This document shows positions 2,298 to 34,515 of a DNA stretch of 64,000 bases, one piece after another. Numbering within the stretch: position 1 is the first letter of the stretch; each line of letters opens with the position of its first letter. Both the position numbers and the translations under genes were made by a program. The stretch is taken from positions 64,001 through 128,000 of the forward strand of contig CAZCTC010000010.1 of assembly GCA_964501335.1 (NCBI GenBank). The letters run 5' to 3'. The DNA comes from an uncultured Anaerolineales bacterium (GTDB lineage: Bacteria > Chloroflexota > Anaerolineae > B4-G1 > SLSP01). The notes beneath the pieces were generated by a model. It made no database searches and was not told where the DNA came from. It saw only the letters and a program-made list of their open reading frames with translations.

Positions 2298-4094
2298 ATG
2301 GTGAATGAGACACGCAGGTACGAGACTCCTCCCAAGGAGCCCAGCGGAAGTCTGGTGCCCTGGGCGGTTCTCATCGCGGGGGCGGTGGTGTTGCTCTGTG
2401 TCTGCGGCGGCATGGCGCTTCTTTTTAATTTCGGTTCGAGTGCCTGGAATGCTCTGCAAACTGCAGGGGCCGATAATACGCCGACTCCGGTGGGGCAAAG
2501 CTGGTCGACGGAAAGTGCCGAGCTGACGGTGGCTGTGGCGCCGGGAATGGCTCCGACTTTTCAGAAGCTGGCGGACGATTTCAACGCTCAGCAGAATAAG
2601 ACGCCGGACGGGGAAGTGATGACCGTCAAAGTCGTCGTGCTGGCGCCCGATCAGATGGTGGAGCAGAGTGTGGACAGGCCGGCTTTCCAGGCCGTGGCGC
2701 CCGACAGCAGTATCTGGCTGGCGCGGATCGAGCAGCGCTGGATCGCTACGCAGGGATTGACCGACACGGCTGAAAGTTCGCTGATCCCGATCAGCGATCG
2801 GCGGGTGGGGATGCCGGTGCGCTATGCGGTAAGCCCGGTGGTGATTGCGGCCTGGGAAGAGGTGGCGCGGGAGTTGGGCTGGCCGGAGACGGTGGGCTGG
2901 CGGCGGATTCAGCAGCGAGCCACCGAAGATCCCAATTTCAAGTGGAACCATCCGAGCACCGGTCAGGCGAGCGGTCTGTTGGCGACGCTGGCGGAATTCT
3001 ATGCCGGCGCCGGGGTGACGCGCGATTTGACGGCGGAACTGGCGCAGAAGCAGGAGACGCTGGACTATGTGCGCGCGGTGGAAGGGACCATCCGTTTCTA
3101 CGGCGAAGGCGAGAGCGTCATCATCGAGCATCTGGAGTCGGAAGGCCGGGGATTCCTGGATGCCTTTGCGACTCAGGAGCAGGTGGTGCTGGCCTGGAAT
3201 CAGAAGCACCCCGATCAGAAGCTGGTGGCGATCTATCCGGCGGAAGGGACCTTGTGGACCGACCATCCGCTGGCGCTGTTGGAGCTGGGGGCGGAGGGTG
3301 AGACGCGGGTAAGCGACAACCAGCGTTTGACTTTCCAGGAACTGGCGGCCTATCTTACCTCGGTGGATGTGCAGAAGCAGTTGCTGGCGGCGGGGTATCG
3401 GCCGGCCGATCTGAGCCTGCGGCTCGACGGCGAGGGCAGTCCCTTTGCCGGCACCAATGCGGTGGACTGGCGGCAGCCGCAGACGACCTTGCAGATCCCG
3501 GGGCCGGATGTCGTCGATGTGGTGATGAATGTCTGGTGGTATACCAAGCGGCCGACCAATGTCATTCTGGTGGTCGATACCAGCGGCAGTATGGAAGGTA
3601 ACAAGATCGCCCGGACCCGTGAGGCGTTGTTGGCTTTTGTGAATCAGATTCAAGGGCCGCGGGACCGGGTGGGCATTCTGGAATTCAGCAATGAGATCAA
3701 GCTGGAAGTGCCGTTGACGGAGATGACGGCGGAGAATCGTGAGCGGCTGTCACAGCAGATCTCGAATATGCGGTCCGACGGGGACACGGCGATGATCGAT
3801 GCCGTGTTGCGGGCGCGTCAGACCCTGGAAGAGAGCGGGGATCCCGAAGCGATCAATGCGATTGTGGTGATGACCGACGGGCAGGAGAATTCCAGCCGCG
3901 CCGACTTGAACGATCTTCAGACGGCTTTTGGTGCCAATCAGGAAAAGCGGGTGGTGATCTTTACGATTGCTTTCGGCAGCGATGCCGATGAGAAATTGTT
4001 GAAGAATATCGCCGAATTGGGCGACGGGCAGTTCCGTCGGGCCACTGAGATGGATATCCAAGAGCTGTACAAGGTCATTTCGACTTACTTCTAA
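2298..4094 (+). CDS. membrane-anchored solute-binding-like protein with a C-terminal von Willebrand factor A (vWA) domain
   Basis: 598 aa with an N-terminal TM helix. The vWA MIDAS motif is VILVVDTSGSMEG, followed by DGDTAMIDAV and VVMTDGQENSS. 15-nt gap to the upstream gene. Confidence 0.75.
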   Translation: MVNETRRYETPPKEPSGSLVPWAVLIAGAVVLLCVCGGMALLFNFGSSAWNALQTAGADNTPTPVGQSWSTESAELTVAVAPGMAPTFQKLADDFNAQQNKTPDGEVMTVKVVVLAPDQMVEQSVDRPAFQAVAPDSSIWLARIEQRWIATQGLTDTAESSLIPISDRRVGMPVRYAVSPVVIAAWEEVARELGWPETVGWRRIQQRATEDPNFKWNHPSTGQASGLLATLAEFYAGAGVTRDLTAELAQKQETLDYVRAVEGTIRFYGEGESVIIEHLESEGRGFLDAFATQEQVVLAWNQKHPDQKLVAIYPAEGTLWTDHPLALLELGAEGETRVSDNQRLTFQELAAYLTSVDVQKQLLAAGYRPADLSLRLDGEGSPFAGTNAVDWRQPQTTLQIPGPDVVDVVMNVWWYTKRPTNVILVVDTSGSMEGNKIARTREALLAFVNQIQGPRDRVGILEFSNEIKLEVPLTEMTAENRERLSQQISNMRSDGDTAMIDAVLRARQTLEESGDPEAINAIVVMTDGQENSSRADLNDLQTAFGANQEKRVVIFTIAFGSDADEKLLKNIAELGDGQFRRATEMDIQELYKVISTYF

Positions 4095-20967: not shown

Positions 20968-21176
20968 ACATTTTGCTGAGTGCTCTCGTTTAACGAATAA
21001 GCCGGACAAAAGGGACCGGAATGGAATTGCTTTTATTGATTAAAACATGGATCACAGCCATCCGGGCGCTCCAGAATCAGATCTCTGTCTGGTTTTTGGA
21101 GCAAATTGCGGTTGGACGGCGATTTTTCTTCAGATATGAAGGCTCAGAGGCCGAACCGGCCACGCCTGATTTGATT

Positions 21177-21716
21177 ATGAGCTTTCAGCAAGGGCATCCC
21201 GAAGCATTTGAGCTGATCTATCAACGATTTAAGAACTATGTCTATCGGGTGGCCTGTTTTTTGGTGCGGGACGATGTGGAAGCTGAGGATGCAGTTCAGG
21301 AGACTTTTCTGGATGTGTTGCATGGATTGCCGCATTATGTACCCAGTGAGAAGGCCGCCTTTGAGACCTGGCTTTATCGGGTTACCATCAATCGTTGTAC
21401 TACCCGATTGCGGCGTAAGGTTTTGCCGTCGACCGATTGGGATGAGATGACGGAACAGATGGAGAATTTACCGACTCCTGATCTGGAAGGCGATCCGGAA
21501 GCGGTTTGTCTGGGCCATGAGGAGACCCTGACGTTGTGGCGGGCCGTCGATACATTGTCGGAGGAGCATCGCGCGGTATTGGTGTTGCGTTATGGACAGG
21601 ATTTGGGGTATGAAGAGATTGCTCAGGTTTTAAATATCAATTCAGGGACGGTGAAATCACGCCTGTTCAATGCTCATCGCAAGTTGCGGTCGGTTTTAGA
21701 GGCCATGAGTGGATAA
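21177..21716 (+). CDS. ECF-family RNA polymerase sigma factor (sigma-70 regions 2 and 4)
   Basis: Region 2 FELIYQRFKNYVYRVACFLVRDDVEAEDAVQETFLDV. Region 4 HTH LSEEHRAVLVLRYGQDLGYEEIAQVLNINSGTVKSRL. The start is placed at internal Met 21177 for a 179-aa product; the ORF is open from 21021. Confidence 0.8.
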   Translation: MSFQQGHPEAFELIYQRFKNYVYRVACFLVRDDVEAEDAVQETFLDVLHGLPHYVPSEKAAFETWLYRVTINRCTTRLRRKVLPSTDWDEMTEQMENLPTPDLEGDPEAVCLGHEETLTLWRAVDTLSEEHRAVLVLRYGQDLGYEEIAQVLNINSGTVKSRLFNAHRKLRSVLEAMSG

Positions 21717-21732: not shown

Positions 21733-24700
21733 GTGAGTAGAAACCATGTGGAGCAGGAATTGCTGGCCTATCTGGACGGAGCATTGGATGCACGGACCCG
21801 AAGCCGGGTCGAAGCGCATCTGAAGGAATGCCCGACCTGTACGGCTGAGCTGGCGCGGTTGAAGCGGCAACGCCTGATATTGGGGCAGGTTTTCAAGATC
21901 AAATTGGGGGAGAAGCAGTTGCCGGCGGCGGCCGATCGCCGGATTCGGACCCGGCTGCGTCAGGAAGCGGAGCCACGCCGGGAATGGTGGTGGGCCTGGC
22001 GCGGTGGGTTGACGCAGGTGGCCCTGGCTTTTATGGCAGTGGCGATGGTGATCACGGCCTGGCCGTTTCTGTCACCTTCGACCTCTCCTGCCGTTCTTCC
22101 GACTGTTCCGCCGCGGACCGAGGTGATGGGACAGAGCCGGCTGGCGCCGGGAAGCCGGGCGGCGATGCGGATCGTGGTGAGAGAACAATTATCTCCGCAG
22201 CCGGTTTCGGGGGCCGAAATTGAAGTGCGGTTGGGCAAGGTGCCCGGACTGGCGGCGTTGGTCTATCGGGGCCGGACGGATGCGGAAGGCATGGTCCAGG
22301 CGGCCTTTACGGTGCCGGAAGAGCTGGAAGGGGCGGTCAATCTGGTGGTGAAGACCGTGGTGGCCGGGCAAAGTGGAGAGATCGTGCGGCCGATTGTGGT
22401 GGTGCGCAGCGCCCGTCTTTTTTTGAATTCCGACAAACCGGTTTATCGGCCCGGGCAGGAGCTGTTTGTGCGGGCGCTGGCATTGGATGCGATGAACCTT
22501 CGCCCGGTGGTTGGGGGGCAGGTGGCTTTTGATATTTTGGACAGCAAGGGGCGTTCCTTAAATCATCAGGTATTGAGGGCTTCGGATTATGGGGTGGCTG
22601 CCTTTACCTGGAAAGTAGCCGATGATTATGCCGACAAGTCGTTGACTTTAAGAGCGACCATCAGTGATACCGTGTCGGAACGTCAGGTAATGGTAGGGGC
22701 TTATCCGCGGGCAGCTTTTCGGCTGAATGTTGAACCGGGACGGACCTTTTATGCCCCCGGGAATCGGGTGACCGGTACCGTTCAGGCTGATTATTTTTTT
22801 GGAAAGGCAGTGGCGGACGCCATGGTGCGGATTGTCGGGCGGCAGGGGGGGGCGGCTGGCGTCATCATAGCCGATGTCAGCGGGCGTACGGATGCCCTGG
22901 GACGGTTCGATTTTACTTTCAATTTGCCACTGGAAGATAGCTGGCGTGAGTTGGGTGGGCAGCCGGACATTCTCTATCTGACTGTGTCGGCGACCGACAG
23001 CGCCGGTCGGACCGAAGGAGTACGTCGGGAGATGCCGGTTTCCCGGGCGGGTCTTCTGATCCAGGCGGTTCCGGAGCGGGGCAGTTTGAAGCCGGGGGTT
23101 GAGAATATCATCTACATTTCGACGGCTTATCCAGATGGACAACCGGCTGCGACGGAGATGGAAATTATGGTTGGAGATGTGTCTTATCAGGTAGCGACCG
23201 ATTCTTACGGCATGGGGGAATTTCGGCTGAAGCCTTTGACTGAGACGGTGATGCTGGAGATTGTCGCTCATGATGAGCAGGGGCAGACGGGCGCCCGGGT
23301 TTTCAATCTGGCAAGCTTTTATGGATCGAAGAGTGTGTTAGTGCGAACCGATGGAGCGATCTATCGAGTAGGGGATACCCTGCATGTGGAAGCTTTGACG
23401 GCGGGGGAAATTCGTCAACTCTATCTGGATGTGTTGCAGGCCGGGCAGTCGGTGGCTATGCTTTCGGGGTTTGTGGAAGAGGGGCGGGCGGCCTGGGCGA
23501 TCGATTTGGACAGCTCGCTGGCAGGGACTCTGGAACTGCATGTGTATGCGGCGGACGATGAGACCCTGGAGGATAGCCGTTCTGTGGTGGTCGATCCGGC
23601 GAATGAGGTTGCCGTGCAGGTGACGGCGGATCGGGCGGTCTATCGGCCTGGAGAGCAGGCCCATTTACAGTTTCAGACAACTTTGACGGAGTCCGGGAAG
23701 TCCCTGCCGGCGCAGGCTTTGCTGGGAGTGGGTGTTGTTGATGCGTCGGTTTATGCGTTGGAACAGTTGCCGGTGGGCTTTGCCCGCACCTATTTTCTGT
23801 TGGATAAAAAATTATCCAGTGTGCCTCAATTGGGTTTTGCCGTGGATCAGGGTTTGGCGGCCGGGTCGGAAAATAGAGCGGTTCGTCTGGCGCAGAGTCG
23901 CGCTGCTGAGGCGGCCTGGGCCTTGGCCGGCGATTCTCCGATCGGAGAAAGGAGGCTTTATGCATTGTCCGTTTCTTATGACGTGCGTTCATCGGCGCAA
24001 AATCAGAAGTCGCCTTCCGATGGGGTGCGGAGACTGTTGGCAGGAATCCTTCTGATATTGGCGATTTTTCTGTGGGTTGTTGTAATTCAGACCCTGTTCC
24101 GGTTGGAGTTAGTGAGAGCGGCTTTGCCCTGGATGGGGGGGGGGATGGTATTTGCTTTTCTGGTCTCACCGCTGCTCTTCTCGCTTACTTCATGGTTGGT
24201 TAATGGCTTGGTTTCGGTGTTGGGGAACTGGATGTTGTTGGTTTTCCTGATTCCGATGGTGGGCCTGTGGGGATTTTTGTGGCGGCAGGGGTGGCGCCGG
24301 CAGGATGTCAGGTTACAGGAAGCGATGGCCATCGTGGGCGCCTATGGGATTTGTGAGAGTTTGCTGATCGTATTGACCCGTGAAAGCCAGAATTTGGCGG
24401 AATTCGAGACGGTGGTGGCGGTCTTTTCTTTTCTGGTATTGCTGGGAGGCATGCTCTTGCTGGGGGCCAGTTTGTGGTTCGAGGGGCATCGTAAGCCGGC
24501 CGGATGGAGCCTGGCTCTGGTGATCGTGTGGGTGATGCTTTCTTTGGCCTTGCCGTCGATCCCGGCCATTTCTTCCCGATTGACTCAGACATTGGGCGAG
24601 CCGGTGCTTTATGCCGGGCCGTTGGGCTGGTTGAGCGGGTGCGCGGCTCCGATGAGTCCTACTGCGGCTCCGACTACAGAGGCTCCGGCTGTTGAGGAGC

Positions 24701-25323
24701 CGACCGAAGCGGCTACAGAAGAAGCAACGGAAGCGCCGACCGAAGAGGCAACTCAGGAAATTCCTACTGCGGCTCCGACTGCTGCGCCGCCGACTGCTAC
24801 GCCCGTTCCAACGCCGGGAATTGAAGTGCCGATGGAACCTTTCCCGTTGCGGCAGTTTTTCCCGGAGACCCTTTACTGGAATGCAGCAGCTGAGACCGAT
24901 GCTGAAGGGCGATGGGATCTGGATTTGCCGTTGGGGGACAATGTGACGACCTGGCGGGTGACGGCGCTGGCTTCAACTCAAGATGGTGCTTTGGGGGCCG
25001 TAGTTTACGATCTGCCGGTCTCTCAGGATTTCTTTATGGAGCTGAATTTACCTGAAACGGTGCGTAGCGGGGCCGAGGTGACCGGTACAGCTACGTTGCA
25101 CAACTATTCACAGGTCAGTCAGACCGTGCAGGTGCAGTTCGCGCCGGCGGACTGGTATGAGGTGCAGGTTTCTTCCGGGACGGTAACGTTAGGACCGGGG
25201 CAGGTAGTTGCCGTGGACTTTGTGTTGAAAGCCGGGCAGGTTGGGAAGTTCACTCTGTTGGTTAAGGCAAACGGGGAGGGAGTCCAGGATGCTCTGGCCC
25301 GGGAAGTCGTGGTCCATGAGTGA
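21733..25323 (+). CDS. anti-sigma factor (zf-HC2 N-terminus) fused to a very large extracytoplasmic domain, an internal multi-TM block, a Pro/Thr/Glu/Ala-rich linker and a C-terminal beta-rich domain
   Basis: GTG start 17 nt after the sigma gene. N-terminus ELLAYLDGALD...HLKECPTCTAEL is the anti-sigma zinc-finger signature. TM helix at about aa 95. About 8 predicted TM helices at aa 760-950. Linker APTTEAPAVEEPTEAATEEATEAPTEEAT. Confidence 0.75.
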   Translation: MSRNHVEQELLAYLDGALDARTRSRVEAHLKECPTCTAELARLKRQRLILGQVFKIKLGEKQLPAAADRRIRTRLRQEAEPRREWWWAWRGGLTQVALAFMAVAMVITAWPFLSPSTSPAVLPTVPPRTEVMGQSRLAPGSRAAMRIVVREQLSPQPVSGAEIEVRLGKVPGLAALVYRGRTDAEGMVQAAFTVPEELEGAVNLVVKTVVAGQSGEIVRPIVVVRSARLFLNSDKPVYRPGQELFVRALALDAMNLRPVVGGQVAFDILDSKGRSLNHQVLRASDYGVAAFTWKVADDYADKSLTLRATISDTVSERQVMVGAYPRAAFRLNVEPGRTFYAPGNRVTGTVQADYFFGKAVADAMVRIVGRQGGAAGVIIADVSGRTDALGRFDFTFNLPLEDSWRELGGQPDILYLTVSATDSAGRTEGVRREMPVSRAGLLIQAVPERGSLKPGVENIIYISTAYPDGQPAATEMEIMVGDVSYQVATDSYGMGEFRLKPLTETVMLEIVAHDEQGQTGARVFNLASFYGSKSVLVRTDGAIYRVGDTLHVEALTAGEIRQLYLDVLQAGQSVAMLSGFVEEGRAAWAIDLDSSLAGTLELHVYAADDETLEDSRSVVVDPANEVAVQVTADRAVYRPGEQAHLQFQTTLTESGKSLPAQALLGVGVVDASVYALEQLPVGFARTYFLLDKKLSSVPQLGFAVDQGLAAGSENRAVRLAQSRAAEAAWALAGDSPIGERRLYALSVSYDVRSSAQNQKSPSDGVRRLLAGILLILAIFLWVVVIQTLFRLELVRAALPWMGGGMVFAFLVSPLLFSLTSWLVNGLVSVLGNWMLLVFLIPMVGLWGFLWRQGWRRQDVRLQEAMAIVGAYGICESLLIVLTRESQNLAEFETVVAVFSFLVLLGGMLLLGASLWFEGHRKPAGWSLALVIVWVMLSLALPSIPAISSRLTQTLGEPVLYAGPLGWLSGCAAPMSPTAAPTTEAPAVEEPTEAATEEATEAPTEEATQEIPTAAPTAAPPTATPVPTPGIEVPMEPFPLRQFFPETLYWNAAAETDAEGRWDLDLPLGDNVTTWRVTALASTQDGALGAVVYDLPVSQDFFMELNLPETVRSGAEVTGTATLHNYSQVSQTVQVQFAPADWYEVQVSSGTVTLGPGQVVAVDFVLKAGQVGKFTLLVKANGEGVQDALAREVVVHE

Positions 25324-25350: not shown

Positions 25351-25770
25351 ATGGAACGGAATGAGAAAAAGATTAAACGTCCTTTTTTGCGGAAACGCTG
25401 GGCTTTGATTTCCGGTCTGGCGCTGGCTTTTTCGGCAGCCTGTGCCGTGCCGGTAACCTGTTATACTCCTATGCCGTCAACGATTGAGCCGTCAGCGACG
25501 CCGACCCAAACGCCGACTCCCACGCCTACGCTTTTTTTCGTCTGTTATACGCCGACGCCTTCGCTGCAACCGATTGATACGTTGACGCCAACCTGTTATA
25601 CGGCTACTCCGATAGCGACTCCCACGCCAGTTTTGATTCCGCCGCCCGAGGCGACCTTCACGCCGATTCCGGCCACGCCTACGCCGATGCCGCAGACATT
25701 GGATGAATTGCGGGAGAAGTTGCTGGTCGAGGGGCGGTTTCCGGAGGGTGTGGTTAAGGAATTGAAGTAG
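25351..25770 (+). CDS. secreted Pro/Thr-rich Cys-Tyr-motif peptide with the conserved C-terminal EGRFP motif (precursor-like, type C)
   Basis: RBS ggag 7 nt upstream. Signal-peptide-like N-terminus. Three CYT(P/A) motifs. C-terminus LDELREKLLVEGRFPEGVVKELK. Confidence 0.6.
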   Translation: MERNEKKIKRPFLRKRWALISGLALAFSAACAVPVTCYTPMPSTIEPSATPTQTPTPTPTLFFVCYTPTPSLQPIDTLTPTCYTATPIATPTPVLIPPPEATFTPIPATPTPMPQTLDELREKLLVEGRFPEGVVKELK

Positions 25771-25783
25771 TTGTGGAGGTTAT

Positions 25784-26128
25784 ATGGAACTCGGAAACAG
25801 AAATCGAGGACGGTTGTCGCGCAAGTTGAAATTGTTGGCGGCTTCCGGGATTGCGTTGGGCCTGGCGGCCCGTTGTGCGGCCGAGCCTACTCCTGAAGTG
25901 CTCTGTTATGCTCCGGTTGCGCCGACTCCGACTGAAACGCCCATGGTGATGTGTTATGAACCCACCATGTCGCCCATTGAGGAGACGCCCACGATCACGC
26001 CAACGGCAACGCTTACCGGTTCTCCGGAAATCACCATTACACCAACTTTGGAATCCCGGAGCACTTTAATGGAACAATTATTGACTGAAGGACGTTTTCC
26101 AAAATGTGTGGCGGAGGAATTGAAATAA
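25784..26128 (+). CDS. secreted Cys-Tyr-motif peptide, type A (copy 1)
   Basis: RBS ggagg. N-terminus MELGNRNRGRLSRKLKLLAASGIALGLAA. Motifs LCYAP and MCYEP. C-terminus RSTLMEQLLTEGRFPKCVAEELK. Confidence 0.6.
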   Translation: MELGNRNRGRLSRKLKLLAASGIALGLAARCAAEPTPEVLCYAPVAPTPTETPMVMCYEPTMSPIEETPTITPTATLTGSPEITITPTLESRSTLMEQLLTEGRFPKCVAEELK

Positions 26129-26154
26129 TTAAATTAATCTAAAGGGATTGATGT

Positions 26155-26547
26155 ATGGGCCAGAAAAAGAGAAGGTTATCGCGTAAGGCGATGTTGGTGG
26201 TGGTTTCTGGAATGGCCGTGGGAATGGCGGCAAGTTATAATGCGGGAGTTGCCATGCCGCCGCCCACGCCTACGCCCACTGCCATTTATTTGACCCCGGC
26301 GGCACTTCCGAACGAAAGCACTGTTTTGCCGCGTTTTCATCCACGCGACATAAGCTGTTATATAGTAATTGATGTAACCCCAGAAGAGAGCTGGATCTCG
26401 TCTCCGGATGGAGCTACCGCGACGCCGACTCCCACACCTACTCCGACTTTGATAGGGAGTTCGGGACCGACCTCTCTGGATCTTTTACGGGAGCAGTTGC
26501 TGGCAGAAGGGCGATTTCCGGATGAGGTGGCGAAGGAATTGAAATAG
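26155..26547 (+). CDS. secreted Cys-Tyr-motif peptide, type B (copy 1)
   Basis: N-terminus MGQKKRRLSRKAMLVVVSGMAVGMAAS. Motif SCYIVIDV. C-terminus LDLLREQLLAEGRFPDEVAKELK. Confidence 0.6.
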   Translation: MGQKKRRLSRKAMLVVVSGMAVGMAASYNAGVAMPPPTPTPTAIYLTPAALPNESTVLPRFHPRDISCYIVIDVTPEESWISSPDGATATPTPTPTPTLIGSSGPTSLDLLREQLLAEGRFPDEVAKELK

Positions 26548-26637
26548 CGAAAATCCTTTTCGGGTGATTTGTTTTTAGTGTCCCACAAAGGGATTTTGCC
26601 CGGTAAGAAGCGACGCGCTGGAGGGAGGAAGGGGCAT

Positions 26638-26982
26638 ATGGAAAGCAAAAACAGAAATCGAGGCCGGTTGTCGCGTAAGTTGAAATTGTTGGTGGCTTCC
26701 GGGATTGCGTTAGGGTTGGCGGCGCGCTGTGTGGCTGAGCCTACGCCGGAAGTGACCTGTTATGCAGTGGCGGCGCCGACGCCGACTGAAACGCCGATGG
26801 TGATGTGTTATGAACCCACCATGCCGCCCATGGAGGAGACGCCCACGATCACGCCGACGGCAACGCTTACCGGTTCTCCGGAGATCACCATAACACCAAA
26901 TGTGGAATCCCGGAGCACTTTAATGGAACAATTATTGACTGAAGGACGTTTTCCAGAATGTGTGGCGGAGGAATTGAAGTAA
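26638..26982 (+). CDS. secreted Cys-Tyr-motif peptide, type A (copy 2)
   Basis: Around 90% nucleotide identity to 25784-26128. RBS ggaggaagg. Motifs TCYAV and MCYEP. C-terminus ...EGRFPECVAEELK. Confidence 0.6.
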   Translation: MESKNRNRGRLSRKLKLLVASGIALGLAARCVAEPTPEVTCYAVAAPTPTETPMVMCYEPTMPPMEETPTITPTATLTGSPEITITPNVESRSTLMEQLLTEGRFPECVAEELK

Positions 26983-27008
26983 TTAAATTAATCGAAAAGG
27001 ATTGATGT

Positions 27009-27428
27009 ATGGGCCAGAAAAAGATAAAGTTATCGCGTAAGGCGATGTTGGTGGTGGTTTCCGGAATAGCCGTGGGAATGGCGGCAAGTTATAATGCGGG
27101 AGTTGCTATGCCGTCGCCCGCGTCCATATTCACGCCCACGTCCACGCCAACTCCCTCTTTCGTTCATTTGCTTTCGAACGGAATTGCCGTTTCGTCGCCC
27201 CATCGTCCAATCGGCGTGAGGTGTTATCTTGTAATTGATGTAACTGAGGTAACTCCAGAAGAAAGTGGGATCTGGTATCCTGATGGAGTTTTCGCGACGC
27301 CGACTCCAACGCCGACTCCCACTCCGACTTTGATAGGGAGTTCGGGGCCGACCTCACTGGATCTTCTACGGGAACAGTTGCTGGCGGAAGGGCGTTTCCC
27401 GGATGCGGTGGCGAAGGAGTTGAAGTAA
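27009..27428 (+). CDS. secreted Cys-Tyr-motif peptide, type B (copy 2)
   Basis: Paralogue of 26155-26547. Motif RCYLVIDV. C-terminus LDLLREQLLAEGRFPDAVAKELK. Confidence 0.6.
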   Translation: MGQKKIKLSRKAMLVVVSGIAVGMAASYNAGVAMPSPASIFTPTSTPTPSFVHLLSNGIAVSSPHRPIGVRCYLVIDVTEVTPEESGIWYPDGVFATPTPTPTPTPTLIGSSGPTSLDLLREQLLAEGRFPDAVAKELK

Positions 27429-27433
27429 GAAGC

Positions 27434-27703
27434 ATGATAAAAAAGCGGAGTAACAAAATCTCCGGGGGGCCGCGCCGGAAGCCGGGGGCGGATTTTTTGG
27501 TCCAGATGTTTCAGGAGTTACACGATGCTGAGGTACGTTCTACTCCGGATTTGAGCATCTGTTACGAGATCCAGGCTGTGGAACCTGATCCGGTAACCGG
27601 GGCAGCTCAACCGGAGAAATCCCGGCAGCTTTTGCGAAGCCGGTTGGTCAAAACCAACCGCTTTCCTGCCGGTGTGGAGGGTGAGTTGGGGGAGGAACGA
27701 TGA
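27434..27703 (+). CDS. sixth family member: no signal peptide, degenerate C-terminal motif, translationally coupled to the radical SAM gene
   Basis: 89 aa. Motif SICYEIQAV is related to the type B SCYIVIDV. C-terminus LLRSRLVKTNRFPAGVEGELGE. Its stop overlaps the rSAM start (ATGA). Confidence 0.5.
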   Translation: MIKKRSNKISGGPRRKPGADFLVQMFQELHDAEVRSTPDLSICYEIQAVEPDPVTGAAQPEKSRQLLRSRLVKTNRFPAGVEGELGEER

Positions 27704-28815
27704 AAAGAAAAGAAGGAAAGCGGACCTGGCTTTCGCGGTGGCGGCAGGTGCTGGCTCAGGTAGAGATGCGGCAGGCGCAAAAGAGAGAGCCGGAACGGGC
27801 TTCTTATTTTATTCTGGAGTTGACGGCGCGTTGTAACCAGGATTGCCGGTATTGTTATAATGTCTGGAAGGCGCGCGAGGGGATGGTCCAACGGGAGATG
27901 ACGACCGAAGAGTGGTGCACGTTGATCGGTCGGTTACAGGACGAGATGGGCTGTCGGCAGGTGACTTTTTCGGGCGGGGAGCCGCTGCTGCGAGAGGATT
28001 TCCGTGAGATCCTGGCCTTCTGTCACCGGCGAGGGTTGGAGAGTATTGTGATTAGCAATGGCCGGTATCTGGACCAGGAGATGCTGGAATTCTGTCTGGC
28101 CCACGGGGTGAAGATGTTTGAAGTGACGCTGCTGGGTTCCAATGCGGCGACCCATGACGGATTGACGCGGGTGCCGGGCAGTTGGGAGCGGGCTCTTTCC
28201 GCGATGACCCGGCTTTACAAGGCCGGGGCTACCTGGTGCGGTGTTTTTGTGGCGACGAGTGAAAATATCGGGCAGGTGCGGGAGACGGTGGAGATGATGA
28301 TTGCGCTGGGGGCGAAGGTCATTATGTTTAACCGGTTCAATCCTGGCGGAGAGGGGGCCCGGCATCGCGATTTGATGCCGGCACCGGATGATGTGCAGAA
28401 GGCGTTGCGGGTTGTGGATGAGCTGGCTGTGGCGTATAATTTCCCTGCAACGGCTTCGGTGCCGGTGATGCCCTGTCTGGTCGATCTACACGGCTTTCAA
28501 CGGGTGCAATTTGGGTTTTGTGCGGCGGGGCGGGCGGGTTCTTATCCCACCATCGGGCCGGATGGCCGGGTGCGCCCTTGCAATCACAGTGCGACCATTC
28601 TGGGGGATTTTCATCAACAGTCGATGCAGGAGATGTTGGAGGGGCCTGCGTTGCGGGCTTTTACGGCCGTGGTGCCTGAGGTTTGCCGGCCCTGTCCGGG
28701 GCTGGATCAATGCCGGGCGGGGTGCAGGGCGGCTGCAGAGGTCTGTTTTGGTTCATTGGAAGAGCCGGAACCCTGGTTGAAGGCTAATTTAGAGCGATTG
28801 CCGCCTATGGTTTAG
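27700..28815 (+). CDS. radical SAM enzyme with a C-terminal SPASM-type auxiliary Fe-S cluster domain (peptide/protein maturase type)
   Basis: CX3CX2C motif CNQDCRYC near the N-terminus. SAM-binding GGEPLL. C-terminal Cys-rich block CAAGRAG...CNHS...CRPCPGLDQCRAGCRAAA. 371 aa. Confidence 0.85.
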   Translation: MKRKEGKRTWLSRWRQVLAQVEMRQAQKREPERASYFILELTARCNQDCRYCYNVWKAREGMVQREMTTEEWCTLIGRLQDEMGCRQVTFSGGEPLLREDFREILAFCHRRGLESIVISNGRYLDQEMLEFCLAHGVKMFEVTLLGSNAATHDGLTRVPGSWERALSAMTRLYKAGATWCGVFVATSENIGQVRETVEMMIALGAKVIMFNRFNPGGEGARHRDLMPAPDDVQKALRVVDELAVAYNFPATASVPVMPCLVDLHGFQRVQFGFCAAGRAGSYPTIGPDGRVRPCNHSATILGDFHQQSMQEMLEGPALRAFTAVVPEVCRPCPGLDQCRAGCRAAAEVCFGSLEEPEPWLKANLERLPPMV

Positions 28816-28825
28816 GCACATTGAG

Positions 28826-29150
28826 GGATGAAAAAGGAATTTCACCACAGAGGCGCAGAGATCACAGAGAAGAAGAAGAGAGGAGATTTTCTGAAACGTA
28901 AAAAGTAATGATCTGTGGGTTTGGTGCAACGGTGAAGGGAGGGGGTAAGCGGATGTTGCCGGGATGCTTTTGGAAAAAGCCATGTTTTTGCGCGCATTCT
29001 GATGCGCGCAAAAACATAAATAAAAAACTCTCTCTGCCTATCCAGCGCGGCGTATTGTAAGGGGAGAGTGCCATTTACGGGTGAGGAGGATTTTTCCAGA
29101 CAGGTGTAACGCACTCGGATCTTGCAATGATGGGCGGTTTGCCTTCAGAT
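28826..29150. repeat. dispersed intergenic repeat element, copy B (left arm, hairpin 28982-29017, right arm)
   Basis: Left arm ggatgaaaaaggaatttcaccacagaggcgcagagatcacagagaagaagaagagaggagattttctgaa matches 6995-7062. Hairpin atgtttttgcgcgc-attctgat-gcgcgcaaaaacat. Right arm aaataaaaaactctctctgcctatccagcgcgg. Confidence 0.8.
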
Positions 29151-29238: not shown

Positions 29239-30093
29239 ATGTTGTTAACCGATTTTATCCATCGTCAGGCTGTTCCTGAGCCATGGGCGGAGGGGGAGAA
29301 GATCCCCTGGAACGATCCGGAATTCAGCCGGCGGATGTTATTGGAGCATCTTTCGCAGGCCCATGATGCTGCCAGCCGGCGTTTCGAGCGGATTGAGCGG
29401 CATGTGGCCTGGATCCAAAGGGTATTGTTGAAGGGGCAATCGGCGCGGATTTTGGATCTGGGATGCGGTCCGGGATTTTATTCTAACCGACTGGCGCGGC
29501 TGGGAAATCAATGTGTGGGGATCGATTTTTCTCCGGCTTCGGTCGAATATGCGCGAGAGCTGGCCGGGGCCGATCAGCTGGATTGTACTTTTATAGAAGG
29601 GGATATTCGGAAGGTGGCGTATGGTGGGGACTATGATTTGGCCATGTTGATTTATGGCGAGTTCAACGTTTTCAAGCCGGCGGAGGCGGAATCCATTTTG
29701 CACAAGGCGTGGGCGGCGTTGAAGCCGGGAGGAATTTTATTGTTGGAACCTTCGACCTATGCCTGTATCCAGGAATTGGGGCAGCGGCCTCCGGAATGGT
29801 ACAGTGCCGATGGTGGGTTATTTTCCGAGCGGCCGCATTTATGCTTGATGGAAAATTTCTGGGATGAAGAGTGCAACGTGACGACGGAGCGATATTGGAT
29901 TGTAGATGCGGAGACGGGGAGTGTGACCCGGCATGCTTCGAGTTCCCAGGCGTACAGCGATGCCCAATTTCAGGCGCTGCTGGAGCGCTGTGGTTTTGAG
30001 GGGGTGACCTTTTATCCTTCTTTAATGGGGGAGGTCGATCCTGAGCAACGGCATCTTATGGCGGTGATGGGATGGAAAGGACAATCTGAATGA
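29239..30093 (+). CDS. class I SAM-dependent methyltransferase
   Basis: Motif I ILDLGCGPGFYS. Acidic motif II IDFS. Motif LKPGGILLLE. Confidence 0.8.
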   Translation: MLLTDFIHRQAVPEPWAEGEKIPWNDPEFSRRMLLEHLSQAHDAASRRFERIERHVAWIQRVLLKGQSARILDLGCGPGFYSNRLARLGNQCVGIDFSPASVEYARELAGADQLDCTFIEGDIRKVAYGGDYDLAMLIYGEFNVFKPAEAESILHKAWAALKPGGILLLEPSTYACIQELGQRPPEWYSADGGLFSERPHLCLMENFWDEECNVTTERYWIVDAETGSVTRHASSSQAYSDAQFQALLERCGFEGVTFYPSLMGEVDPEQRHLMAVMGWKGQSE

Positions 30094-30974
30094 AGTCGCG
30101 TGTTTATGCTGCCTCTGATTATCCGGCTTTACTACATCTATTGGGGCAGTGTGAGATGTTTACCCAGTGGACCTTCAATCCCAATGAGGTTCCCGAGAAC
30201 CCGGCTTTTACCCGTTTGTGGGAGGATGAGGCCGGGAAATTGTTGGCGGCGGCGTTTTTGCATTATCATTCCAAAGCGGAGAATGCGCGGGCTTATCTGA
30301 CGTGGGCGGTGTTGCCCGCGTGGCGGGCGGTATTGTTGCGGCAGTTGCTCGAATGGGCGATGGAGAACCGGCAGAAGTTCAATCCTATGGCTACTGTGGG
30401 GTGTAGGGCCCAGGCGGACGACGAGGCGACGGCGGCATTTTTAACGGAAGTTGGTTTTATGCCGCATCCGGAGTTGATCACTTCGTTTATGGGGCGACCC
30501 TGTGGTGGGGACCTGGAAATTCCGGCCTTACCTGCGGGCTATCAGCTGCGGCCGTTCCAGCCGGCGGATATGGCGGCTTGGCTGGCGGTGTGGAGTCAGA
30601 CTCAAAGCCATGCTTTGACTCCAGATGAACGGATGGGGTGGTTGAATTATCCTTCTTATCGACCTGAACTGGATTGGGTGATCGAGACTCCGGACGGTGG
30701 GGTGGGAGGGTATGGAGTCGGAAACCTCTTTTTAGATGAAGGGGATAGGGTCGGGCCCGATTCCGCCTGGATTTTGTGGTTGGGGGTGGATTCCGGGGTG
30801 CGGCGGCAGGGATTGGCCCAGATCCTGCTTGGGCAGTTGTTGAAGGAATTCGAGGCTATGGACTGTGAGCGGGTGATTCTCAATGTGATGTCGAGCAATG
30901 AACCGGCCATCCGGTTGTATGAAAAATTGGGGTTTACCACGTTGTGGCAGAGTATGTATTTTTCCTGCTCTTGA
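30090..30974 (+). CDS. GNAT-family N-acetyltransferase (probably a tandem GNAT fold)
   Basis: Acetyl-CoA-binding motif RRQGLAQILLGQLL...RLYEKLGF. Start overlaps the methyltransferase stop by 4 nt. Confidence 0.7.
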   Translation: MKSRVYAASDYPALLHLLGQCEMFTQWTFNPNEVPENPAFTRLWEDEAGKLLAAAFLHYHSKAENARAYLTWAVLPAWRAVLLRQLLEWAMENRQKFNPMATVGCRAQADDEATAAFLTEVGFMPHPELITSFMGRPCGGDLEIPALPAGYQLRPFQPADMAAWLAVWSQTQSHALTPDERMGWLNYPSYRPELDWVIETPDGGVGGYGVGNLFLDEGDRVGPDSAWILWLGVDSGVRRQGLAQILLGQLLKEFEAMDCERVILNVMSSNEPAIRLYEKLGFTTLWQSMYFSCS

Positions 30975-32037: not shown

Positions 32038-32074
32038 GAAGGCGGCACTCTTAAGTTCGAGGGCGTCGCCGGGA

Positions 32075-32180
32075 CGGTTCTGGAAAAAGCCATGTTTTGG
32101 TGCGCCTTCTGAGGCGCACCAAAACATCAACAAAAAAATGCTCTCCTTCCATCCTGTGATGTGCTTCTTACGAGAAAAGT
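32075..32180. repeat. dispersed intergenic repeat element, copy C (hairpin 32092-32127)
   Basis: ggttctggaaaaagcc-atgttttggtgcgcc-ttctga-ggcgcaccaaaacat-caacaaaaaaatgctctcc... Confidence 0.75.
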
Positions 32181-32901: not shown

Positions 32902-34515
32902 GTGATGAACGCTTTTACACGGATGTTAAGTGGAGGAGTGATTTTAGGAACGCTGTTCCTGACGGCCTGTGGTACCCCTGTTCCTACCGGGGCTCCGACT
33001 CAAGAAATGCGGCTTGAGTCAGCAGCTACGGAAGAAGCCACGGAGGCGCCTTATGATTATGCGCCCGCAGCGACTGCGGCGCCCGCGTTTGACGAGGCGC
33101 TTGGGGGACCTTCGACCGGAGGATCGGCCGAACCGAACGATCAACCTTACGGCGATGTTTTCTTTGAGAACTATGGGGTCAATCCGGTCATCGACACGGA
33201 AGATGATCATTTTTCGACCTTTGCCGTGGATGTGGACACGGCTTCTTACACGGTAATGCGCCGCTATCTGGCCGACGGCAATCTGCCGGACAAAGACTCG
33301 GTGCGGGTCGAGGAATACATCAATTTCTTCGATCAGGAATATACGCCCCCAACGGAAGGCGCTTTTGCCATCCATCTGGAAGGATCGCCGGCGCCTTACG
33401 GTGAGAACAATTACTATCTGGTGCGGGTGGGGTTGAAGGGTTATGAAGTTCCGGCTGAAGAGCGGAAGCCGGTGGTACTCACCTTTGTGATCGATGTTTC
33501 CGGGTCGATGGGAGAAGGAAACCGGCTGGCATTGGTTAAGCAGGCTTTGCAACTGCTGGTGCAGAACCTTCGCCCTACGGATAAAGTTGCCGTCGTGGTG
33601 TACGGCGATGTGGCGCATGTGGTGCTGGAACATACCCCCGTTTCGGAATCCAACACCATTTTGCAGGCGATCAATCGTTTGCAGACCGAAGGGGCTACCA
33701 ATGCTGAGGATGGGCTGAAATTGGGTTATCAACTTGCAGATCAGGCTTTTGAAGATGGTGCCATCAACCGGGTGATCCTCTGCTCGGATGGGGTAGCCAA
33801 TGTAGGAAATACGGGGCCCGATTCTATTTTGCAGCAGATTCGCCGCTATGCCGACAATGGTATTTTTATGACGACCGTGGGCTTTGGGATGGGGAATTAC
33901 AACGATGTGCTGATGGAGCAACTGGCCGATGACGGCGACGGTTTTTACGCTTATGTGGACGATATCAAAGAGGCCGAGCGGGTCTTTGTGAACGATTTGA
34001 CTTCATCGTTACAGGTGATCGCCAAGGATGCCAAAATCCAGGTCGATTTCAATCCCCAGGTGGTGGCTCGTTATCGGCTGATCGGTTATGAGAATCGGGA
34101 TGTGGCCGATGAAGATTTCCGCAACGACAATGTGGATGCGGGTGAGATCGGGGTCGGGCACAGCGTCACGGCGCTTTATGAGGTGAAATTCCAGCGGGAG
34201 ATCGATCCTCAGGCGACGGCGATGACCGTGGCGGTGCGGTATGCCGATCCCGACAGCGGGAATGTGACAGAGATTTCCCGTTCGATCGCTCAGGCCGATC
34301 TGGCAACTGCTTTTGAGGCGACCTCGCCGCGGTTCCAGTTGGATGCGGTGGCGGCTGAATATGCGGAGATTTTGCGGGAGAGTTACTGGGCGCGCGGTTC
34401 AACGTTAGAAGCCCTGGTTTCTCAAGCGCGGCGGATTGCCGATGCTTTGCCGCAAGATGCAGAGGTGCGGGAATTTGCGGATCTGGTAGCCCGAGCCGCT
34501 CAGTTGCGGAGATAA
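32902..34515 (+). CDS. vWA-domain lipoprotein (YfbK-like architecture)
   Basis: Lipobox LTACG. MIDAS motif VLTFVIDVSGSMGEG, followed by CSDGVANVG. 537 aa. Confidence 0.8.
   Translation: MMNAFTRMLSGGVILGTLFLTACGTPVPTGAPTQEMRLESAATEEATEAPYDYAPAATAAPAFDEALGGPSTGGSAEPNDQPYGDVFFENYGVNPVIDTEDDHFSTFAVDVDTASYTVMRRYLADGNLPDKDSVRVEEYINFFDQEYTPPTEGAFAIHLEGSPAPYGENNYYLVRVGLKGYEVPAEERKPVVLTFVIDVSGSMGEGNRLALVKQALQLLVQNLRPTDKVAVVVYGDVAHVVLEHTPVSESNTILQAINRLQTEGATNAEDGLKLGYQLADQAFEDGAINRVILCSDGVANVGNTGPDSILQQIRRYADNGIFMTTVGFGMGNYNDVLMEQLADDGDGFYAYVDDIKEAERVFVNDLTSSLQVIAKDAKIQVDFNPQVVARYRLIGYENRDVADEDFRNDNVDAGEIGVGHSVTALYEVKFQREIDPQATAMTVAVRYADPDSGNVTEISRSIAQADLATAFEATSPRFQLDAVAAEYAEILRESYWARGSTLEALVSQARRIADALPQDAEVREFADLVARAAQLRR

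Follow-up and report, generated by a model that had tools for sequence, protein, structure and literature searches.

The subject of this analysis is a small open reading frame (ORF), here called ORF6, in a 64,000-nucleotide stretch of DNA from an uncultured Anaerolineales bacterium; we refer to this whole stretch as the window. ORF6 lies on the forward strand at 27434-27703 (ATG at 27434, TGA at 27701-27703), encodes 89 amino acids and occupies the slot between a row of five precursor genes and a gene for a radical SAM (rSAM)/SPASM enzyme, all of them read from the forward strand. Precursors 1 to 4 (25351-25770, 25784-26128, 26155-26547 and 26638-26982) all carry a hydrophobic N-terminal segment. 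The fifth (27009-27428), a canonical precursor of type B, ends with a TAA codon at 27426-27428, and the ATG of ORF6 begins 5 nucleotides (nt) later. At the other end, the ATG of the enzyme gene (27700-28815) overlaps the stop codon of ORF6 in the four bases ATGA at 27700-27703 (the sequence at 27695-27707 reads gaacgATGAaaag); this overlap, which the initial annotation of this DNA had pointed out, is real. A Shine-Dalgarno-like GGGGGAGG for the enzyme gene (27688-27695, forward strand) falls within codons L85-G86-E87 of ORF6, 4 nt before the rSAM ATG. We find that ORF6 has the properties of a diverged, signal-less member of the Cys-Tyr precursor family represented by its five neighbours.

The canonical member of this family has a basic N-terminus followed by a hydrophobic segment ending in a lipobox-like x-A-C-S, then one to five x-C-Y-x-P sites, Thr/Pro linkers and a C-terminal '...EARRLLRERLLAEGRFPQDVARELxS'. 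When the six small proteins of the locus are aligned, the features that ORF6 has in common with the others are only the basic N-terminus, one Cys-Tyr and a C-terminal L..L....RFP..V..EL. The N-terminus of ORF6, MIKKRSNKIS (27434-27463), resembles the n-region of its neighbours (MGQKKIKLSRK) in these alignments. Residues 11-41 (GGPRRKPGADFLVQMFQELHDAEVRSTPDLS; 27464-27556) are charged and mostly modelled as helix, and in relatives their place is taken by the hydrophobic segment and the lipobox-like A-C-S. Cys43-Tyr44 (27560-27565) is the sole copy in ORF6 of the family's presumed modification site; it stands in the context S-I-C-Y-E-I-Q and, like the type B copies, lacks the usual Pro at +3. 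The C-terminal helix motif, RQLLRSRLVKTNRFPAGVEGEL (27623-27688), compares with a family consensus of ARxLLRERLLAEGRFPxDVAREL and is weakened to SRQLLRSRLVKTNRFPAGVEGEL. Both the single Cys-Tyr site and the degenerate C-terminal motif are thus present as first described.

Is this frame translated? A codon model for which 29 long ORFs of the window served as the training set gives ORF6 0.241 bits per codon in its own frame, as against -0.72 and -0.61 in the other two (for reference, genes score 0.357 +/- 0.142 and off-frame windows -0.62 +/- 0.24). This is 3.5 standard deviations (z) above stop-free shuffles of the same bases, and such a score is reached by 2 of 70 spurious ORFs of 70-130 amino acids. 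The novel N-terminal stretch taken separately (codons 11-41) scores 0.347, with p 0.0085 against stop-free shuffles. The GC contents at the three codon positions (.62/.44/.62) are nearer to those of the rSAM gene (.63/.47/.67) than to those of the precursors. Mononucleotide shuffles of ORF6 are stop-free at a rate of 0.017, and therefore chance alone would seldom leave a frame open over just the length of the gap. From its sequence, ORF6 looks like a truly coding ORF, and the suspicion of a non-coding frame, which the initial annotation had kept in reserve, does not apply given the coding-like codon usage.

A different account would leave the interval untranslated, with an incidental open frame and a role played by the RNA itself, that of a spacer, hairpin or attenuator separating the enzyme gene from the precursors. 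Two structures could be cited for it. The first is an RNA hairpin at 27636-27665 (forward strand) with 13-nt arms (GAAGCCGGTTGGT / ACCAACCGCTTTC) and a 4-nt loop; its -15.4 kcal/mol stands out to a moderate degree (z -2.3; 3 of 200 shuffles reach this stability), and it covers the codons where the motif deviates (RLVKTNRF, with LVKTN instead of LLAEG). The second, in the N-terminal part at 27470-27499, is a GC-rich imperfect stem followed by AUUUUUUG, a U6 tail, which looks terminator-like by eye; however, at -13.2 kcal/mol this stem is no better than shuffles (z -0.33), and the terminator scan calls no intrinsic terminator in ORF6. The region has no match among Rfam families, and the open frame, the in-frame family motifs and the codon signature favour translation, which leaves a purely RNA-level role very unlikely.

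The feature that sets ORF6 apart is the missing export signal. The maximum 15-residue Kyte-Doolittle mean of ORF6 is 0.41, compared with 1.80-2.30 in the five neighbours and at least 2.0 in nearly all relatives from other loci (the family range is 1.8-2.7), which bears out the earlier claim that the hydrophobic signal sequence is absent. Members of the family have a basic region plus a hydrophobic segment of Sec, lipoprotein or Tat type; ORF6 has no such segment. The Thr/Pro linker is missing as well: the Pro+Thr fraction is 0.11 in ORF6 and 0.21-0.35 in the neighbours, and the linker columns of the alignment are gaps. We considered a signal hidden by a frameshift or homopolymer error (there are runs of G6, G5 and T6 at 27466-27497), but the other two frames hold stops and no hydrophobic segment, and we reject this explanation because an independent Logan assembly (L012) gives an identical ORF6. 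A double-glycine leader (KISGG, residues 8-12) was likewise set aside: judged by eye, the leader would be only 12 residues long and lacks the usual hydrophobic spacing. Because there is no Sec, lipoprotein or Tat signal, the ORF6 product probably stays in the cytoplasm.

That ORF6 belongs to the family at all is a question for the protein motifs. We searched the 1,447 stop-to-stop six-frame ORFs of the window with a hidden Markov model (HMM) for the C-terminal motif that drew on other loci only (32 non-identical sequences). The five canonical precursors top the ranking (E 1e-11 to 8e-9) and ORF6 comes sixth of all 1,447 (E 0.02, 11.1 bits), while the first ORF below it has an E value of 0.23. 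In an alignment of 20 sequences that includes members from other loci (alignment A4), ORF6 retains all four invariant columns (L67, R76, P78, L85) together with C43, Y44, L71 and F77, and has lost all conserved signal and linker positions. Put as counts, ORF6 keeps 8 of the 9 conserved positions of the Cys-Tyr site and the motif, and 0 of 4 elsewhere. It also shares with the family the placing of the helix motif at the protein end (with a weak score), the possession of at least one Cys-Tyr site, and a position on the same strand as, and tightly joined to, the rSAM/SPASM gene.

At the DNA level, blastn finds no significant similarity of ORF6 to any of the five precursor genes, so the family claim rests on protein motifs. 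The same result speaks against a recent type B origin; the divergence of ORF6 from the five copies matches that between the copy types. The proposed kinship of its SICYEIQAV with the type B SCYIVIDV comes down to a few shared positions with no DNA similarity behind them and is weak, although the Cys-Tyr itself stands. This evidence gives good support to placing ORF6 in the Cys-Tyr precursor family, as a paralogue that has diverged very far.

The partner enzyme is a PqqE-like radical SAM/SPASM protein of 371 amino acids that stays below every curated cut-off. Support for its start codon comes from the N-terminus, MKRKEGKRTWLSRWRQ, which lines up with the start of about 40 orthologues (M.RRNWLQ.TLLRWQ). 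The best curated match is TIGR02109 (PqqE), at 114.7 bits against a cut-off of 381.35, so that the enzyme is not a member; nor is it a member of TIGR04133 (rSAM_w_lipo; 79.3 bits, cut-off 425). The closest solved structure is PqqE (6c8v, E 1.8e-24), and the SPASM region matches the anaerobic sulfatase-maturating enzyme (anSME) 4k37 at E 2.3e-7. Orthologues form about 50 clusters at 62-70% identity, from Chloroflexi where named, and the next proteins are at about 43%. A scan of GTDB genomes with the rSAM returned distant relatives only (at most 38% identity), and therefore the window's own lineage is not represented there. Neither a peptide-recognition element (RRE) domain in the enzyme nor a PqqD-like neighbour gene was found.

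The 89-residue length of ORF6 and its place beside a PqqE-like rSAM recall PqqD, and the initial annotation had suggested a chaperone-like partner. A protein of this kind would fold as an RRE and present the precursors to the enzyme. ORF6 has no Pfam family at E values up to 10, no NCBIfam match and no meaningful sequence match in the PDB. Half of it is homologous to the substrate family and not to RREs, and no comparable ORF lies at any orthologous locus examined. A single-sequence AF2 model, of low confidence (mean pLDDT 63.7), has three helices (17-36, 38-47 and 60-73) and no strands. A PqqD-like chaperone is accordingly disfavoured, and we regard it as highly improbable.

The wider rSAM clade gives a hint as to which of the retained features matter to the enzyme. 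Of 46 distinct loci with distant rSAM relatives (27-44% identity), 37 have an ORF with Cys-Tyr whose end adjoins the rSAM start, against a background of about 9% of ORFs that contain Cys-Tyr; at two of the loci (L046 and L047) the counted ORF is an rSAM paralogue, with a Cys-Tyr peptide just upstream of the paralogue. In most of the 37 the site reads h-[TLM]-C-Y-x-P, and an 'LLxxLxAEGKhP' helix recurs in several distant loci. The Cys-Tyr proteins of this wider clade are of several kinds, namely leader-type peptides, polytopic membrane proteins, Tat lipoproteins and 400-residue membrane proteins (for example L001 1598-2260, L054 3327-3986, L056 1229-1936, L088 2934-4031, and L094 102-791 and 808-1536). 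Going by these recurring patterns, Cys-Tyr is likely the site of enzyme action and the helix likely a docking element. Three distant loci have Cys-Tyr peptides without a signal beside the rSAM (L045 3335-3928, L046 2360-2716 and L049 3470-3922), with the helix as an N-terminal leader in L046 and L049 and at the C-terminus in L045. A signal peptide on the substrate is thus not a requirement of this enzyme clade.

We propose that ORF6 is a lineage-specific paralogue of the Cys-Tyr family that has lost the export signal and the Thr/Pro linker. More specifically, it may be a non-exported small protein derived from a substrate, co-translated with the enzyme and probably retaining the ability to dock on it, a reading that we hold with middling confidence. 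Ribosomes ending precursor 5 would re-initiate on ORF6, and those ending ORF6 would start the rSAM, such that ORF6 and the enzyme would be made together. The product, having no export signal, would be cytoplasmic and could dock on the enzyme through the retained helix (LLxxxL...RFPxxVxxEL), presenting its single Cys-Tyr. It might then either be modified as a cytoplasmic product or compete with the five exported copies. Among the possibilities listed in the initial annotation, a cytoplasmic precursor variant is the best fit, being signal-less with the Cys-Tyr site and the motif kept. The uneven retention (motif and Cys-Tyr kept, the rest lost), together with the coding-like N-terminal part, argues for some constraint at the protein level.

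Several observations weigh against this proposal. The C-terminal motif of ORF6 scores 11 bits with the HMM where its neighbours score 32-41, and its Cys-Tyr lacks the Pro at +3 that is usual in the clade. ORF6 is also unique: a word-indexed search of 5.8 billion proteins returned only ORF6 itself, and an exhaustive phmmer search of 1.84 billion representatives returned ORF6 and two spurious, repeat-driven matches. A useful cytoplasmic variant would be expected to recur. Among the 68 clusters gathered by a family profile search (every source name shown is 'hypothetical protein'), 66 have a hydrophobic or Tat-type N-terminus. The two exceptions are ORF6 and P0174. The latter begins with an internal Met (MCYVPPPP...), apparently through a mis-start or truncation; that apparent mis-start aside, ORF6 is the only signal-less, Cys-Tyr-bearing member seen among the clusters. 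In every orthologous locus examined, a canonical precursor complete with signal stands immediately before the rSAM gene. Conservation of ORF6 beside rSAM homologues, which had been put forward as a check on the prediction, is not seen, with no such ORF at any orthologous locus examined, and ORF6 is an oddity of one genome, not a conserved part of the system. The sampling bears on how this is read: the nearest rSAM is only 67-70% identical, and the window precursors P5 and P2 (the two looked up) are singleton clusters too. Because sampling near the window's rSAM is this sparse, the absence of ORF6 elsewhere is weak evidence.

The same survey bears on the direction of change. It had been suggested that ORF6 is the ancestral precursor, a signal-less form that gave rise to the exported copies, and the signal-less Cys-Tyr peptides beside distant rSAM relatives, as well as the divergence of ORF6 from the five copies being as deep as that between the copy types, would agree with this. 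Since signals are present in the gene at every orthologous slot and in 66 of the 68 clusters, however, parsimony makes the loss in ORF6 derived. ORF6 moreover keeps the basic n-region, and the distance from its start to the Cys-Tyr is 42 residues, as in the signal-bearing copies. An ancestral ORF6 is disfavoured to the point of being hardly credible, and even taken jointly, an RRE-like chaperone, an untranslated RNA spacer and an ancestral form are at best unlikely.

We now consider the junction between ORF6 and the enzyme gene, which we surveyed in 22 distinct loci, the window and 21 others (for example L013 5965-6003 and L028 3965-4003). In all 22, the stop codon of the last precursor lies between -4 and +3 nt from the rSAM start. 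The junction mostly takes the form TAG-NNN-ATG/GTG; the window, L015 and L037 have an ATGA or GTGA overlap. Purines of the GGAG/GGGG type, supplied by the final codons of the precursor (GAG TTG GAG/GGG ...), precede the rSAM start in most of these loci, where the conserved C-terminal codons R-E-L-E/G-S double as the Shine-Dalgarno-like sequence of the enzyme gene. The coupling of ORF6 to the rSAM gene that the initial annotation had stressed therefore holds as far as the overlap goes but is not special to ORF6: a junction kept tight across 22 loci makes the coupling of the enzyme gene to whichever gene occupies the slot a trait of the clade. It also follows from this conserved junction that limits are set on the last few codons and on the reading frame as far as 27700, no matter what the ORF6 product does.

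This constraint raises the question of whether the product matters. ORF6 could be a relic, a disabled precursor gene whose open frame and Shine-Dalgarno sequence are kept to deliver ribosomes to the rSAM start. The conserved stop-start distance and the Shine-Dalgarno-like purines of the 22 loci point to selection on the coupling itself, and the uniqueness of ORF6 together with its weak motif argues for a relic kept open for this purpose. Turnover in the family is high, which again tells against a functional variant, and truncated, signal-less remnants do arise elsewhere. The relative L044 has a recent in-frame deletion derivative (3416-3646). Set against the full-length L052 678-1061, it cleanly lacks a single internal block of about 72 codons, and with it the signal and both Cys-Tyr sites, while the remainder is nearly identical. 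Similar remnants consisting of the C-terminal part only occur at L018 64-243 and L043 1966-2145, and a decayed precursor copy is fused upstream in L017 (4717-5925), L022 and L025. These remnants of other loci are recent, lack Cys-Tyr and are not beside the rSAM, whereas ORF6 is old, bears Cys-Tyr and adjoins the enzyme gene. In a relic, the motif residues should have decayed like the rest, which is not what the counts of retained positions given above look like, and the coding-like codon usage extends to the novel N-terminal part. The Shine-Dalgarno constraint accounts for E84-L85 but not for L67, L71 or R76-F77-P78. We regard the relic, the chief rival to our proposal, as possible but doubtful.

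The opposite alternative gives the product more of a role than we propose. ORF6 could be a dedicated cytoplasmic partner of the enzyme that acts at the peptide-binding site as a substrate-mimic decoy, a regulator or an in-trans activator, and so adjusts or permits the processing of the exported copies. The retained docking-type motif and coding signature fit this idea, the ATGA overlap favours joint synthesis with the enzyme, and the rSAM has neither an RRE domain nor a PqqD-like neighbour. Orthologous systems, on the other hand, work without such an ORF, which cannot then be a required component, and there is no conservation of ORF6 outside this genome. We consider a dedicated partner quite unlikely. 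In its most pointed form, ORF6 would be a purpose-built cytoplasmic substrate mimic, synthesised in step with the enzyme, that fills the docking site of the rSAM by means of the retained C-terminal helix and thereby gates or activates the modification of the exported, lipoprotein-like Cys-Tyr peptides; this, too, we think unlikely.

Much about the system is of a kind already known, namely paralogous precursor genes served by one rSAM/SPASM maturase, degenerate copies and overlapping cistrons. PqqE cross-links a Glu and a Tyr of PqqA, aided by the small RRE protein PqqD. The window resembles this arrangement in that its enzyme best matches PqqE, small peptide genes lie directly upstream and a Tyr stands in the conserved site. 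It differs in that its rSAM is far below the PqqE cut-off, there is no PqqD and ORF6 has no PqqD similarity; its substrates, in addition, have N-terminal export signals, repeated Cys-Tyr and a recognition-type motif at the C-terminus rather than the N-terminus. The ranthipeptide system PapA/PapB and SCIFF are multi-precursor rSAM/SPASM clusters for ribosomally made, modified peptides with repeated Cys motifs. As there, several paralogous small ORFs are served by one SPASM maturase and a short Cys motif is repeated in each peptide, and multi-precursor clusters of this type likewise undergo paralogue turnover that includes degenerate copies. Their precursors, however, have N-terminal leaders and their maturases have RREs, in contrast to the export signals and C-terminal motif of the window system.

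In the anaerobic sulfatase-maturating enzymes with their sulfatases, and in QhpD/QhpC, a cytoplasmic Fe-S enzyme modifies signal-bearing substrates before export. The window shares with these the combination of a cytoplasmic rSAM/SPASM enzyme and signal-bearing substrates, but its site is C-Y-x-P and not C/S-x-P-x-R, its substrates are short Thr/Pro-rich peptides and not enzymes, and ORF6, having no signal, is unlike any substrate there. TIGR04133 (rSAM_w_lipo) again pairs an rSAM/SPASM enzyme with predicted lipoproteins, and the relatives of ORF6 have the lipobox-like ...A-C-S; its cut-off is nevertheless far above the score of the window's rSAM (79 bits against 425), and the partner family is unmatched. 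The four-base stop/start overlap with the downstream Shine-Dalgarno sequence lying in the upstream ORF is that of ATGA-coupled cistrons in general, of which the window has another example at 30090-30093. The ORF6 overlap is in this respect nothing unusual, and what is notable is the tight last-precursor junction across the whole orthologous clade. None of the window precursors matched a curated family, and the Cys-Tyr precursor family appears uncurated; a signal-less copy within an otherwise exported family is new. A full-text literature search turned up no account of exported substrates in a Cys-Tyr rSAM system, which is not proof of absence.

The surrounding genes complete the picture of the locus. 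Precursors 2+3 and 4+5 (25784-27428) are a tandem duplication of a two-gene unit, with DNA identities of 90% between P2 and P4 and 75% between P3 and P5 and a near-identical intergenic 'taattaaattaatc.aaa.ggattgatgtATG'. The type B precursors (26155-26547 and 27009-27428) have ...GMAASYNAG... in place of the lipobox-like ...A-C-S of relatives, and a single Cys-Tyr followed by hydrophobic residues (CYIVIDV, CYLVIDV) and not x-P. Upstream of the precursors, on the forward strand, lie an ECF-type sigma factor (21021-21716) and a 1,196-residue protein in which a zf-HC2 anti-sigma protein is fused to alpha-2-macroglobulin domains (21733-25323); both are also neighbours in L013 and L015. A vWA/YfbK protein (32902-34515) likewise accompanies the precursor and rSAM genes along with the sigma/anti-sigma pair, as it does in L013 (1-3949) and L015 (1105-5381). 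The relatives L014 and L017 lack the sigma factor, anti-sigma and vWA neighbours. Where present, these neighbours hint at envelope-stress control of the precursor-rSAM system.

Downstream of the rSAM gene, a 73-nt repeat at 28955-29027 and 32065-32137 (84% identical) flanks a methyltransferase-GNAT-MarR segment. Each copy contains a GC-rich hairpin whose stem differs between the copies and is self-complementary in each, and the first copy (28955-29027) is probably the operon terminator. The segment includes, just downstream of the rSAM operon at 29239-30974, the genes of a SAM-dependent methyltransferase and a GNAT acetyltransferase, which are joined by the ATGA overlap at 30090-30093 mentioned above. 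No such pair adjoins the rSAM in the four gene-called relatives' loci (L013-L015 and L017); the GNAT gene that L015 carries about 3.5 kb downstream of the rSAM is unrelated and lies on the opposite strand.

At this locus, an RRE-less, PqqE-like rSAM/SPASM enzyme is paired with substrates in which an N-terminal export signal, repeated Cys-Tyr sites and a C-terminal docking-type helix come together. This enzyme-substrate pairing occurs in Chloroflexi and, with other architectures, across the wider rSAM clade. No other natural member is at once soluble, short and single-site, and ORF6 could thus serve as the handiest substrate for work on Cys-Tyr chemistry and helix recognition. If the substrate-mimic reading were true, ORF6 would be a self-encoded regulator that evolved from a substrate in an rSAM system without an RRE. 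If ORF6 is functional, it would be an example of a substrate gene turned to use as a cytoplasmic partner; as a relic, it would instead exemplify selection on an open frame for translational coupling and not for its product.

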